Virus record (IMG/VR): IMGVR_UViG_3300049830_000086
Span: 1-54,237 of that record
DNA from: a virus
Taxonomy: Duplodnaviria > Caudoviricetes
Reading direction: 5' to 3' (one strand)
DNA: 54,237 bases
Shown here one piece after another: positions 9,050 through 14,276 of this stretch. Position 1 is the first letter of the stretch; each line of letters opens with the position of its first letter. The notes under the pieces were generated by a model. That model saw only the letters and a program-made list of their open reading frames with translations. It did no database searches and was not told the DNA's origin. A program made the translations under genes and the position numbers.

Positions 9050-9124
9050 TGGTGGGTCGCCCCGGTATCGAACCGAGTTCCATTGATTAAGAGTCAATTG
9101 CTTCACCATTAAAGCTTGCAACCC
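9050..9124 (-). tRNA. tRNA-Lys(CTT)
   Basis: ATTGA-CTCTTAA-TCAAT; CCA. Confidence 0.92.
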
Positions 9125-9627
9125 AAATTCTTAGCCCATTTTCTAACAGCATTATCACTGACATCAAACATTCTTCCAATCTGTAACCAGGATATGTTTT
9201 TATCTAGTAACTGCTGCAGTTGTTCTTTAGTAGGATGTTTTACCTTATGCTGTGCCAAATGTGTACATTCTTGGCTACAAAATTTTCTTTCATAGTCTTT
9301 TGTGTCAAATAGCTTCTTGCATACAGTACATTCTTTTGTCTTAAAAGTTTTAAGGTATCTAACTAGAGAATGATCTATCTGTAATTCATGTATTTCACGA
9401 TGACAGTTTGAACAAACTAATATACATTTTTCTAGTTCTTTCTTTGCTCGCTTCCAAGACCAACGCTGAACTACATAGCCAGCATCATGATCTTTTTTTC
9501 CAATGTGATGAAACTCTAATGCTCCAAGGCATTTATTATAGCCACATATAGAGCATTTTCCACCAAATTGATTAACTGCAAATTCCTTCTTCCTTCGTTG
9601 TGCTTTTACTACAATGTTAGTATCCAT
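9109..9627 (-). CDS. HNH endonuclease with zinc finger and C-terminal HTH (start moved to MDTNIV)
   Basis: GGKCSICGY..C..ALEFHH...KCILVCSNCHREIH; SDNAVRKW HTH; stop codon lies inside tRNA-Lys. Confidence 0.85.
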   Translation of the reverse strand: MDTNIVVKAQRRKKEFAVNQFGGKCSICGYNKCLGALEFHHIGKKDHDAGYVVQRWSWKRAKKELEKCILVCSNCHREIHELQIDHSLVRYLKTFKTKECTVCKKLFDTKDYERKFCSQECTHLAQHKVKHPTKEQLQQLLDKNISWLQIGRMFDVSDNAVRKWAKNLGCKL

Positions 9628-9633
9628 ACTAGA

Positions 9634-9662
9634 AGTATAGTTCGAATAATTGGGCCAAGCAA
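9634..9662 (-). promoter_or_regulatory. Sigma70-type promoter, probably leaderless HNH mRNA
   Basis: TTGCTT-N17-TATACT-N6-ATG. Confidence 0.6.
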
Positions 9663-9687
9663 GTAAAATATTCGAACTAACTAAAAT

Positions 9688-9762
9688 TGGTGGCAGTAGT
9701 TGGAGTTGAACCAACGACAAATGGCGTATGAGACCACTGCTCTACCGCTGAGCTACACTGCC
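9688..9762 (-). tRNA. tRNA(CAT), elongator Met or Ile2
   Basis: GTGGT-CTCATAC-GCCAT; G1:C72 paired; CCA. Confidence 0.88.
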
Positions 9763-10172: not shown

Positions 10173-10246
10173 TGGAGCCAGAACTGGGAATCGAACCCAG
10201 ATGTCTACATTACCAATGTAGCGCTCTACCACTGAGCTATTCCGGC
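10173..10246 (-). tRNA. tRNA-Thr(GGT)
   Basis: CTACA-TTGGTAA-TGTAG; CCA. Confidence 0.93.
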
Positions 10247-10249
10247 AAA

Positions 10250-10600
10250 GTCTGTCTCATAGCCGCGCTTCTGTTTCTAATCCATCATTTGTCTAAGCCC
10301 TCTAAAAAACCATGTACTATTGGCAGCACTACCGTACATATTCGAGGTTGCATCTACTTTGTGGTGTTAGCGGATTTCTCCTCCCAAACAGCTGCTGTGA
10401 TGGCGCGAACTTCCTCTATCCTCAGGGTGATTCCCGATTCTCCACACCCACAGCCTCCATTGCCCTGCCCACTATATCAAGGCGGTTAAGGGTTAGCTAG
10501 CCGAAGAGGCATACTGATTTATGGATCGTGTCTAGCATCCGGTGAAATTGTAATTTTCCGGACTCGTTATATTATGAGGACAGCGATGGATCGGACAGAC
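10250..10600 (-). ncRNA. rnpB: RNase P RNA, atypical (long P3, reduced S-domain, no P18)
   Basis: P1 GTCTGTC/GACAGAC; P2 ATCCATC/GATGGAT; P3 CTGTCCTCA/TGAGGATAG; CR-I GAGGAAGTTCGCGC pairing with CR-V ACAGAAGCGCGGCTA; CR-IV AGACAAATG. Confidence 0.85.
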
Positions 10601-10800
10601 TAAATTGATCTTTCACCTTTGACTATAATCCAACCAGTATAGGTTGTACGAGCATAAGCGTGAGTATAACCTGCTGACCAAAGATTCCTAAGGTGATCGT
10701 GTCTAATTTTTTCTTTAGCCATTGTTTTTGCAGATTCTATACTTTTTAACGCCGACGCTATGGTTTTTAATTCTTCCTTTGTTGCGCTTTTAGTAAACAT
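10600..10800 (-). CDS. Hypothetical protein
   Basis: 66-aa ORF. Confidence 0.45.
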   Translation of the reverse strand: MFTKSATKEELKTIASALKSIESAKTMAKEKIRHDHLRNLWSAGYTHAYARTTYTGWIIVKGERSI

Positions 10801-10830: not shown

Positions 10831-11109
10831 TTAAACTAGTTTAAGCTCAATGATGTTGAACTTATTGACTATATCGGATTCTGCAAACTGTGCCCTAATG
10901 ACGGCTAGTGTTTTATCTTGCTCATCAAAGGTTAGTCTACGAGAAGCTTTGATCTGACCTATAGGACCTTTGCTTACTAACATCATTTTTTCCGAGAAGC
11001 CGAAGTCATTCATGTGACTATTAATTCGGTCTTCAAAATCTTTTACAGATGGTACGACATCACCAGTCTTCACTTCTGCGATTATGTCGTAAAGGTATTC
11101 TGGTGGCAT
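10831..11109 (-). CDS. Hypothetical protein
   Basis: 92-aa ORF packed after the membrane protein gene. Confidence 0.55.
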   Translation of the reverse strand: MPPEYLYDIIAEVKTGDVVPSVKDFEDRINSHMNDFGFSEKMMLVSKGPIGQIKASRRLTFDEQDKTLAVIRAQFAESDIVNKFNIIELKLV

Positions 11110-11110
11110 G

Positions 11111-11446
11111 TTAGTGTAAGTAGATGTAAGTTAGCGTTAGAGACCAAGCATGTATAAGCTGGTCTAGTCCTATCACTGCAAAGAACCAATGCCTATGAAA
11201 GACAGGATAATAGAGTGCTCTAGTCATCCTTGAAGTTATGGCGTCGGTAATGAAGTGAGTGACGAAAGTTATTAGTGCAAACTTCCAACCTAGCCAGCTA
11301 AAGGCTAGTGAATAGATAAGCACGTGTAGAGTTAGTGCACCCCAATGCTTTGATTTGTTGATTGCCATCCAGTCATTCTGTAGCAGGAAGTCTGCTACGA
11401 AGTGGACAGTCAAAAGGATGAGGACGATGTAAAATGGGTTAGTCAT
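11111..11446 (-). CDS. DUF3307-like membrane protein
   Basis: HFVADFLLQ..W.A.NK, H...D and GLDQLIH motifs in hydrophobic helices. Confidence 0.8.
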   Translation of the reverse strand: MTNPFYIVLILLTVHFVADFLLQNDWMAINKSKHWGALTLHVLIYSLAFSWLGWKFALITFVTHFITDAITSRMTRALYYPVFHRHWFFAVIGLDQLIHAWSLTLTYIYLH

Positions 11447-11467
11447 ATTTGGGATGCATATTAGTAT

Positions 11468-11496
11468 TTGCTTTTCACAAACTAGTATACTATAGT
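11468..11496 (+). promoter_or_regulatory. Sigma70-type promoter, probably leaderless HNH mRNA
   Basis: TTGCTT-N17-TATAGT-N6-ATG(11503). Confidence 0.6.
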
Positions 11497-11502
11497 GTTG
11501 TT

Positions 11503-12039
11503 ATGAAATTGATGATAAACGTTAAAGACCTGAGCAGCTATAAGTCTAGAGATTTTGTACCTTTGGAGTGTAGACAATGTGGTAAAAATTTTTCTAAACC
11601 AAAACATTACGTATCAAAAGTATTAGGTAACCAATACAAAAATATTACATTAGATTTTTGCTCAAAATCATGTCACTGGCTTGCTATGAAGAAGCAAGTG
11701 GTTGTAACGTGTAATAACTGTAATAAACAGGTGGAAAAGAAACCATCCGAGTTGTCTAAATCAAAGCATGGTTTGGCTTTTTGTAATAGGACTTGTGCAG
11801 CAACATACAACAACAAACATCGTGTTCGAGTTATAAAAGTTGACTATAGATCTTTTGCATTAAAAAATCTAAAAAATGAATGTGTCAAATGTGGGTATAA
11901 CAGGTATCCAAATGTACTGCAAGTCCACCATAAAGACCGTAAGAGGAATAACAATAAATTAAATAACTTGGAGTTATTGTGTCCAACATGTCATCAAGAA
12001 CATCACTTTTTAGAAAATACTGGAGCTTACTCTAAATGA
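11503..12039 (+). CDS. HNH endonuclease with N-terminal zinc-finger repeats (only convincing plus-strand gene)
   Basis: CxxC...FCSxxC repeats; CVKCGY...LQVHHKD..R.NN...NLELLCPTCHQEHH. Confidence 0.88.
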   Translation: MKLMINVKDLSSYKSRDFVPLECRQCGKNFSKPKHYVSKVLGNQYKNITLDFCSKSCHWLAMKKQVVVTCNNCNKQVEKKPSELSKSKHGLAFCNRTCAATYNNKHRVRVIKVDYRSFALKNLKNECVKCGYNRYPNVLQVHHKDRKRNNNKLNNLELLCPTCHQEHHFLENTGAYSK

Positions 12040-12123: not shown

Positions 12124-12195
12124 GGCCTAAGACTGGAGTTGAGCCAGTATCTTCCTTATTACGAGTAAGGGGCTCTACCATTGAGCTACTCAGGC
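12124..12195 (-). tRNA. tRNA-Thr(CGT)
   Basis: CCTTA-CTCGTAA-TAAGG; T-loop variant CTCAACT; no CCA. Confidence 0.8.
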
Positions 12196-12508: not shown

Positions 12509-12584
12509 TGGTAGGCGTGGCAGGGCTCGAACCCGCGACATTTTCCGTGTAAAGGAACTACTCTACCAACTGAGTTACACGCCT
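12509..12584 (-). tRNA. tRNA-Val(TAC)
   Basis: Loop TTTACAC; A73; CCA. Confidence 0.92.
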
Positions 12585-12982
12585 ATTCTAATTCTTTTAT
12601 ACGATCTACCTTGTCCTATATTCAATGAACCTGCATTAGGAGTTAACGCATGACAATTAGGACATAGCAAATCTAAATTTGGTTCTGCGGAATTTCTGAA
12701 ACTACCATCCTTATGATGAATTTCCAATGGGATAGTTCCAGTGGTCTTATTCTTTTTAGACCAATGACAAATACTACAAGCATTATTAAATTTTTCAAAC
12801 AGGTAGCGTCTAATATGCCTAGATACTGAATATCCAACAGTAGCCGTTACTAAACCTGCTTTCCATTTAAGCACAAACTCCTTGTACTCAAACTCTCGTT
12901 GACAAAAATTGTTACAGTATTTTTTAGGTTTTCTGGATACCTCTTTATCACAATTTAAGCATGACTGTTGTTTCACCTTCAT
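12575..12982 (-). CDS. HNH endonuclease
   Basis: CLNC...KYCNNFC; CSICHW...LEIHHKDG...NLDLLCPNCHALT; stop codon inside tRNA-Val. Confidence 0.9.
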   Translation of the reverse strand: MKVKQQSCLNCDKEVSRKPKKYCNNFCQREFEYKEFVLKWKAGLVTATVGYSVSRHIRRYLFEKFNNACSICHWSKKNKTTGTIPLEIHHKDGSFRNSAEPNLDLLCPNCHALTPNAGSLNIGQGRSYKRIRIGV

Positions 12983-12988
12983 ATTCAA

Positions 12989-14200: not shown

Positions 14201-14276
14201 TGGTCCCTCATACTAGTTTCGAGCTAGTGACACCTGGTGTTTCAAACCAGTGCTCTACCATCTGAGCTAATGAGGG
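14201..14276 (-). tRNA. tRNA-Phe(GAA)
   Basis: CTGGT-TTGAAAC-ACCAG; T-loop variant CTCGAAA; CCA. Confidence 0.88.

Follow-up and report, generated by a model that had tools for sequence, protein, structure and literature searches.

We analysed a window of 54,237 bp, the whole of the IMG/VR virus record IMGVR_UViG_3300049830_000086 (estimated completeness ~25%), which comes from a large freshwater phage and has 31 tRNA genes, all 31 on the minus strand. RNase P counts as a housekeeping ribozyme common to all cells. Immediately upstream of a tRNA-Thr gene, this phage carries a 353-nt element that is very probably, judging from sequence comparison, a genuine RNase P RNA under selection. The element has a whole catalytic domain (C-domain) of bacterial type, has lost most of the specificity domain (S-domain) and helix P18, and belongs to a widespread family of mini RNase P RNAs found on phages and other mobile elements. 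It is likely, in our view, a functional ribozyme supplied by the phage, serving as the 5' maturase of the phage's own tRNAs and working with the RnpA protein of the host; this is the best-supported mechanism.

The initial annotation of this DNA had read a phage-encoded RNase P RNA at positions 10250-10600, a placement right to 1-2 nt, the element running on the minus strand from 10601 to 10249. A covariance model, R1, of 157 positions and 24 pairs was built from an alignment (A3) of 16 phage elements from which the window was excluded. R1 spans only the conserved regions (CR) from CR-I to CR-V, and the family P1-P3 helices rest on a MAFFT alignment (A2) and on direct reading. Searched against both strands of the whole window, R1 gave a single match at E ≤ 10, located at 10258-10416 (minus) with 80.8 bits and an E-value of 1.1e-17, in agreement with the claim that the phage carries an RNase P RNA homologue. 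The match covers the full model (positions 1-157 of 157), and of 44 columns invariant among the 16 seed sequences of R1 the window retains 41. The parts of the element and its two neighbours, the second of which is an open reading frame (ORF), are the following:

10249..10601, minus: whole mini RNase P RNA, 353 nt from the P1 5' end to the P1 3' end; helices read directly, R1 match as above, and a match of 25.0 bits to the Rfam model RNaseP_arch at 10248-10442 (minus)
10594..10601 with 10249..10256, minus: P1, 8/8 pairs, read directly; the helix is kept in relatives despite their differing sequence
10585..10591 with 10280..10286, minus: P2, 7/7 pairs, read directly; compensatory C-G to U-A change in the relative L080
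10576..10583 with 10416..10423, minus: P3, 8/8 pairs including one G-U, read directly; same register as the family P3, the last G of the 3' strand being the first G of CR-I
10424..10575, minus: 152-nt insert forming the P3 loop, lineage-specific, not in L080 or other members
10403..10416, minus: CR-I, i.e. J3-4 and the P4 5' strand with its bulged U, aligned to the Rfam and R1 consensus
10403..10411 (5' strand) with 10261..10268, minus: P4, 8 pairs and one bulged U, read directly
10399..10402 with 10351..10354, minus: P5 (CAUC/GAUG), 4/4 pairs, read directly; 98.1% paired in the family
10355..10398, minus: residual S-domain stub of 44 nt with the P6 5' strand, a P7-like helix (4/5 pairs form) and a GAAA-capped hairpin (3/3 pairs form)
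10393..10397 with 10324..10328 (P17 loop), minus: P6 pseudoknot, 5/5 pairs, read directly in the family register; P6 covaries in the family
10348..10350, minus: P5/P15 linker CAA, 3 nt, read directly
10299..10347, minus: P15-P16-P17 arm including the P6 3' strand; P15 4/4 and P16 6/6 pairs, P17 of 2 bp
10309..10311, minus: GGU, start of the internal-loop strand in the P15-P17 arm; the columns of GG and of U hardly vary across the family
10286..10298, minus: CR-IV, immediately after P15 (Rfam, R1 and direct reading)
10257..10275, minus: CR-V (J2/4) and the P4 3' strand (10261-10268) (Rfam, R1 and direct reading)
10173..10246, minus: tRNA-Thr(GGU), its CCA encoded, starting 2 nt after the ribozyme (tRNA predictions and Rfam)
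10600..10800, minus: 66-aa ORF just upstream, its stop codon overlapping the first 2 nt of P1; no Pfam family

P1, P2, P3, P4, P5, CR-IV and CR-V, all named in the initial annotation, could be read directly from the sequence, and the P6 that it held possible (GCAGC/GCTGC) corresponds to the P6 of the family register shifted by 2 nt inside a CAGCAGC repeat. Its estimate of about 45 nt between the P5 strands, with the S-domain mostly lost, is close to the 44 nt counted. It was likewise correct on the absence of P18, since in the window RNA the P15 3' strand continues straight into CR-IV and leaves no space for this helix. Within the stub, the P7-like helix has five positions with one mismatch and the hairpin consists of 3 bp closed by a GAAA loop. 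Conserved unpaired motifs are also present between the P5 strands (window 10355-10398) in nearly all members of alignments A3 and A4 (the R1 alignment described below), namely a run of GGGAGR preceding the small hairpin and CG.U...ACC following it. The space from the stop codon of the 66-aa ORF (10600) to the tRNA-Thr(GGU) gene is taken up by the mini RNase P RNA, and no long ORF is found on the minus strand within the 353 nt at 10601..10249.

The structure was then considered in two alignments. In alignment A2, made of 17 full-length relatives with the window left out, the 60 pairs are 83.8% paired, compared with 57.8 ± 1.1% in shuffled controls (0 of 500 reach the observed value) and 33-46% when the strands are slid by 1-3 columns; changes on both sides were found in 53 of these 60 pairs. 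In alignment A4, which holds 27 R1-aligned sequences including the window, 37 pairs are 93.8% paired against 63.8% after shuffling and 31-46% after sliding by 1-3 columns. P4 is 99.5% paired in A4, with compensatory changes in 6 of its 8 pairs. The counts for P4 and P6 are independent of the R1 fit because these pseudoknots were outside the R1 structure, whereas those for the nested helices of A4 do depend on it. Between the window and its closest relative, L080, compensatory changes were seen by eye in P2, P4, P5 and P6.

The family was assembled by pattern searches followed by R1. The pattern of the first scan (CR-I, ~110 nt, CR-IV, CR-V) is restricted in spacing, so that a full-size RNase P RNA cannot match it. 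It returned 35 loci in IMG/VR, 12 of which were discarded as chance matches in coding sequence, and a second pattern with longer spacing returned 23 further loci, 20 of them matching R1 at E ≤ 1e-6 and three rejected for want of an R1 match at E ≤ 0.01. For the loci L002-L040, R1 matches 23 of 39 at E ≤ 0.0011; L004-L007, which came from another pattern, were chance matches with no tRNAs and no significant R1 match. A narrower pattern gave two metagenome contigs. In cellular genomes (596 Gb), the pattern of the first scan found 36 loci, of which 28 had no R1 match at E ≤ 0.01 and were set aside; loci matching R1 at 70-142 bits lie on two short, tRNA-filled contigs of metagenome-assembled genomes (MAGs) and in Achromobacter anxifer LMG 26857. 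R1 also matches the metagenome locus L080, two uncultured phages, one of 635 kb and one of 735 kb, and Stenotrophomonas phage vB_SmaS-DLP_6 (DLP6), which is in culture. After removal of duplicates, four by script and five judged from identical sequences or identical scores, ~42 distinct elements were left, the IMG/VR contigs that carry them reaching 501 kb. The typical element is ~200 nt long with a short P3. With the region as BLAST query, 50,697 phage records yielded a tRNA match only; the window core gave only a 43-nt match, in the 735-kb phage, and the L016 element used as query gave nothing.

Two members belong to cultured organisms. The DLP6 copy (L081:2812-3052; KU682439.2, ~105777-106017) is unannotated, stands directly before a tRNA-Arg gene, scores 75.9 bits with R1 and 54.7 bits with RF00010, and has ~35 extra nt at the position of P18; a fragment matching a permuted tmRNA lies at the start of the same locus, L081. 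The copy of Achromobacter anxifer LMG 26857 is located on contig C5 (14076-14299; L084/L085). The same bacterium also has a canonical rnpB (202 bits), and the mini RNA is thus an accessory gene. It lies in an island of ~17 kb (C5 ~9.4-26.4 kb) with 54 tRNA-like genes and a tmRNA-like gene, flanked by genes for a type IV secretion coupling protein, a GyrB-like protein, an RNA ligase and a thymidylate synthase; the whole resembles a conjugative element bearing a 'translation island'. Elsewhere in the set, a tmRNA gene (L017:1261-1644, 97.4 bits in Rfam) is found ~1.3 kb from the mini RNase P RNA of a 150-kb phage contig, and the related phage contig L003 has a tRNA with anticodon CUA at 10616-10690 (amber suppressor; labelled Pyl by ARAGORN) and four consecutive tRNA-Cys genes at 10988-11946.

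By its helices and conserved regions, the core is of bacterial type A, and the element descends from a type-A RNase P RNA whose catalytic domain it keeps whole. With type A (RF00010; E. coli M1 RNA), it shares the helix order P1-P2-P3-P4-P5...P15-P16-P17...P2'-P4'-P1', the 7-bp P2, the P4 with a bulged U, the P6 pseudoknot, the GGU internal loop beside P15, and CR-I, CR-IV and CR-V. It differs by its size, ~200 nt in the phage family (353 nt with the insert) against ~370-400 nt, by the single small hairpin in which the family P7 ends, P8-P14 with CR-II and CR-III being lost together with P18, and by its status, the family being an extra copy on phages and mobile elements whereas type A is the essential gene of the cell. 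The RF00010 scores of the relatives form a continuum which points to this type-A ancestry: 118.5 bits for L025, the sole one above the cut-off of 100, then 82.7 for the Achromobacter copy, 70.8 for L051 and 63.5 for L016, and at the lower end the DLP6 copy at the value given above, 48.9 for L008 and 28.4 for L012. Other relatives, like the window, reach only 25-44 bits, and on the archaeal model, and at the thresholds applied Rfam gives no RNase P match for L067, L080, L082 and L083. When Rfam aligns the Achromobacter copy, 45 nt stand in for 140 model positions of the S-domain and 0 nt for the 24 of P18, the aligned parts being P1-P5, P7, P15-P17, GGU, CR-IV and CR-V.

The reduction had initially been compared with archaeal type T. 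The type T RNAs of the Thermoproteaceae keep the catalytic domain, are without the greater part of the specificity domain and were missed by the Rfam models of their time; they have a 3-bp P2, a 2-nt P5/P15 linker and a shortened P15, with archaeal proteins as partners (Chan, Brown and Lowe 2012, PMC3579882). Most of the S-domain is absent from the window RNA as it is from type T (RF02357), but its P2 has 7 bp, its linker is the 3-nt CAA, and it has the bacterial P6 and GGU loop, type T being an archaeal RNA of cells. Reduction was convergent in these two separate families, and the comparison holds as an analogy only. Another likeness is found with a laboratory construct. The E. coli C-domain alone ('Eco CP RPR') cleaves, with an efficiency lower than that of full RNase P and dependent on a P6-like interaction, and has no need of P18 when deprived of the S-domain (Mao et al. 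2018, PMC5839562). Both this RNA and the phage family are type-A catalytic domains without the S-domain, and by keeping P6 while dropping P18 and the S-domain the family matches these C-domain truncations (PMC5839562); Eco CP RPR is however a laboratory truncation, whereas the family is natural, conserved and mobile, with a conserved stub of 44-60 nt. Bacteria of the candidate phyla radiation (CPR) have diverged RNase P RNAs under the Rfam cut-offs, without helices such as P12, P13, P14 and P18 and sometimes without the CCA-binding motif (Lui, Nielsen and Arkin 2021, PMC8172020). These are the single copies of the cells themselves and have most of the S-domain, unlike the phage family, in which almost the entire S-domain is missing and the GGU is retained. 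Five archaeal MAG loci were also met in the searches, with RNase P RNAs of 187-220 nt (L066:496-682, L058:4918-5137, L041:3450-3667, L050:3629-3845 and L069:949-1159). Two bear the names Aenigmatarchaeota and Iainarchaeum, the other three are 'uncultured archaeon'; four match RNaseP_arch at 92.7-111.3 bits and one at 83.7 (cut-off 84). All five are cellular RNase P RNAs of short length that lie outside the Thermoproteaceae.

The large P3 is proper to the lineage of the window. P3 stem plus loop amount to 168 nt, close to the extension of ~165 nt first noted, with a loop of 152 nt on an intact 8-bp stem. L080 shares with the window the gene order (tRNA-Thr(CGU), tRNA-His, element, tRNA-Thr(GGU)), the window-specific P15-P17 sequence and the same tiny S-domain stub, and its P3 is a 5-bp stem with a 4-nt loop. 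Every other member seen likewise combines a tiny stub with a short P3, smaller P3 expansions being present in L029 and L031. The short P3 of L080 shows the 152-nt loop to be recent and lineage-specific, and it cannot compensate for the lost S-domain; the suggestion in the initial annotation that the insert replaces this domain is therefore abandoned. Neither a repeat nor a homologue of the insert was found in the window or in any locus analysed, Rfam gives no match, and its predicted fold is no better than that of shuffled sequences (z +0.46). An assembly artefact was ruled out: an independent freshwater run (X2) holds two contigs that match the window without a difference over 10306-10456 and 10502-10652, and these cross both junctions. 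Contigs of two other runs, X3 and X4, cover only the tRNA and the part below 10256.

The genomic context is that of a tRNA array, and the family as a whole sits for the most part within arrays of this kind, on their strand, in large and huge phages, besides at least one conjugative-type island. The tRNA-Thr(GGU) gene begins 2 nt after P1, in keeping with the adjacency first described. Among the locus rows, 38 of 51 hold tRNAs and in all 38 every tRNA is on the strand of the element; at least three tRNAs lie within 5 kb of 28 of the ~42 distinct elements, and a tRNA starts within 60 nt past the end of the model in 9 of them. As Rfam aligns them, 26 of the 31 window tRNAs have CCA straight after the discriminator, which fits the retained GGU loop. 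All 31 are above the Rfam tRNA cut-off and 29 have a T-loop starting with the usual UUC, which leaves little basis for the idea that the ribozyme tolerates T-loop-variant tRNAs. A C in place of U at the first T-loop position was seen in two tRNAs, Thr-CGU and Phe-GAA (window 12124-12195 and 14204-14276, minus). No RnpA (PF00825) was found in the window, as had been noticed, nor in any of five related huge-phage genomes (296-476 kb, 95-100% complete). A scan of the window found no terminator-like site around the element or before tRNA-Thr, and promoter-like sites at chance level. The replication module of the window is T4-like, with a DNA ligase, a UvsX-like recombinase, a DNA polymerase, a DnaB-like helicase and an SbcCD-like nuclease. 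Inside the tRNA cluster, an ORF on the opposite strand (11449-12039, plus) has a Pfam match to HNH endonucleases of 22.6 bits for a cut-off of 21.4, and two ORFs between tRNAs (9109-9720 and 12575-12988, minus) show Cys/His motifs by eye and no Pfam match.

In the mechanism that we favour, the mini RNase P RNA would be co-transcribed with the tRNAs, and cleavage at the 5' end of the following tRNA-Thr would also generate the 3' end of the ribozyme itself. The RnpA protein of the host would be recruited, which we infer because the phages encode no RnpA. The ribozyme would then remove the 5' leaders of phage pre-tRNAs, the substrate being held chiefly by pairing of the GGU loop with the encoded 3' CCA and by acceptor-stem contacts, in place of the T-loop contacts of the S-domain. 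The likely benefit would be an extra, host-independent capacity for tRNA processing during infection.

Several observations weigh against this proposal. At gathering thresholds, Rfam finds tRNAs only in the whole window, and its best RNase P match in E-value mode on 701 nt, RNaseP_arch (RF00373), reaches 25.0 bits for a cut-off of 84 (E 3.4e-5); RF00010, with a gathering cut-off of 100 bits, has no match to the window at E ≤ 0.001. The covariance search advised in the initial annotation has a double outcome, no Rfam model reaching its cut-off and the family model R1 giving a strong match. The RNaseP_arch alignment nonetheless covers CR-I, CR-IV and CR-V, and this model comes first only because it tolerates the deletions. 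The minimum free energy fold of a single 355-nt stretch is unremarkable (z -0.93, 18 of 100 shuffles at least as good), a calculation that is uninformative for this element because pseudoknots cannot be drawn. The window copy is also among the more divergent members, with its 80.8 bits in R1 against 104-165 for the seeds, and departs from the family by the mismatch in the P7-like helix, the 2-bp P17, an off-consensus loop strand after GGU and changes in 3 of the 44 invariant columns. An insert of no detectable fold inside P3 could hinder folding, and constructs reduced to the C-domain are less efficient (PMC5839562). As 14 of the ~42 elements have no tRNA or a single one within 5 kb in the stretch examined, the link with tRNA arrays is frequent and not universal. 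Finally, activity, use of the host RnpA and CCA-based binding are inferred.

A rival reading is a non-catalytic RNA, a decoy or regulator that retains the face of RNase P RNA to which RnpA binds, soaking up host RnpA or pre-tRNAs and thereby biasing processing towards the phage or stopping host tRNA maturation. Any partner protein would have to be that of the host, as no phage rnpA is present, and loss of the S-domain lowers the activity of engineered constructs (PMC5839562). We hold this improbable, because conservation across the ~42 elements goes beyond a protein-binding face and covers the active and substrate-binding sites, i.e. P4 with its bulged U, CR-I, CR-IV, CR-V, the J5/15 linker and the GGU loop, and because the placement right upstream of tRNAs suits a processing enzyme. 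The close tRNAs, within 60 nt after 9 of the ~42 elements and at 2 nt in the window, raise in turn the idea of a ribozyme acting in cis, on its own polycistronic transcript only, where it might release the neighbouring tRNA and its own 3' end, or else shifted towards phage RNAs other than tRNAs, a change of substrate that the weakened T-loop recognition of an RNA without S-domain could bring about. To this we give an equally small chance: 33 of the ~42 elements have no such close tRNA and 14 at most one within 5 kb, so that a purely cis role cannot be general, and the GGU loop together with the CCA of 26 of the 31 tRNAs fits ordinary recognition of many tRNAs in trans. Decay of a host rnpB fragment picked up with tRNA genes, of which the P3 insert would be a sign, might explain the low Rfam scores, the large insert without detectable structure and the divergence of the window copy, and is nonetheless very unlikely and fits the data poorly, given that the losses of S-domain and P18 are identical in ~42 elements of unrelated contigs, that compensatory changes maintain the helices and 41 of 44 invariant positions are retained in the window, and that the insert sits in a peripheral loop on an intact 8-bp P3 with the same sequence in separate runs.

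A functional ribozyme maturing phage tRNAs with the RnpA of the host thus probably remains the better description. A bolder extension of it, which we regard as speculative and rather doubtful, would be a self-contained 'tRNA supply module' on phages and conjugative islands, made of a tRNA array, often a tmRNA, and a mini RNase P re-tuned to CCA-bearing tRNAs without an S-domain and perhaps protein-free. Such a module could make tRNA maturation independent of the host and insulate it, for instance during a shut-off of host transcription or RNase P or under attack on tRNAs by a defence system, and the P3 insert could have been newly gained as a functional domain, for example one on which a phage factor docks. 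If this were true, the family would hold the first RNase P encoded by a virus and, among natural ones of bacterial type, the smallest.

A literature search returned no description of an RNase P RNA encoded by a phage, a plasmid or a mobile element; subscription journals and supplements were incompletely covered and a prior report is possible, and for that reason the family is called probably, and not certainly, undescribed. In the portion of a 2024 history and review of RNase P drawn on here, a 'phage-encoded' passage concerns phage tRNAs and a phage RNase P RNA is not mentioned (PMC11143913), and in the corresponding portion of the DLP6 genome paper the term 'RNase P' does not occur (PMC5349666). 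The DLP6 record has no annotated feature at the site of the mini RNase P RNA, and Rfam 15 holds no family that captures these RNAs. The ribozyme itself is known; what is probably new is its mobile bacterial-type form devoid of S-domain and P18.

Current annotation misses these genes, one relative being above the Rfam cut-off among those checked, and a dedicated covariance model would improve the annotation of phages. The compact ribozyme may also serve for tRNA processing in vitro, and since one member is present in the cultured phage DLP6 and another in an Achromobacter in culture, direct tests of the question are feasible. The family amounts to a natural experiment on what a bacterial RNase P RNA can lose, the S-domain and P18, and what it must keep, P4, P6 and the GGU loop, and it bears on the minimal catalytic core and on substrate recognition without T-loop contacts. 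Phages are known to bring translation-related genes such as tRNAs, tmRNA and synthetases, and to these phage-borne genes the present finding would add RNase P, in a conserved mobile version of ~200 nt.

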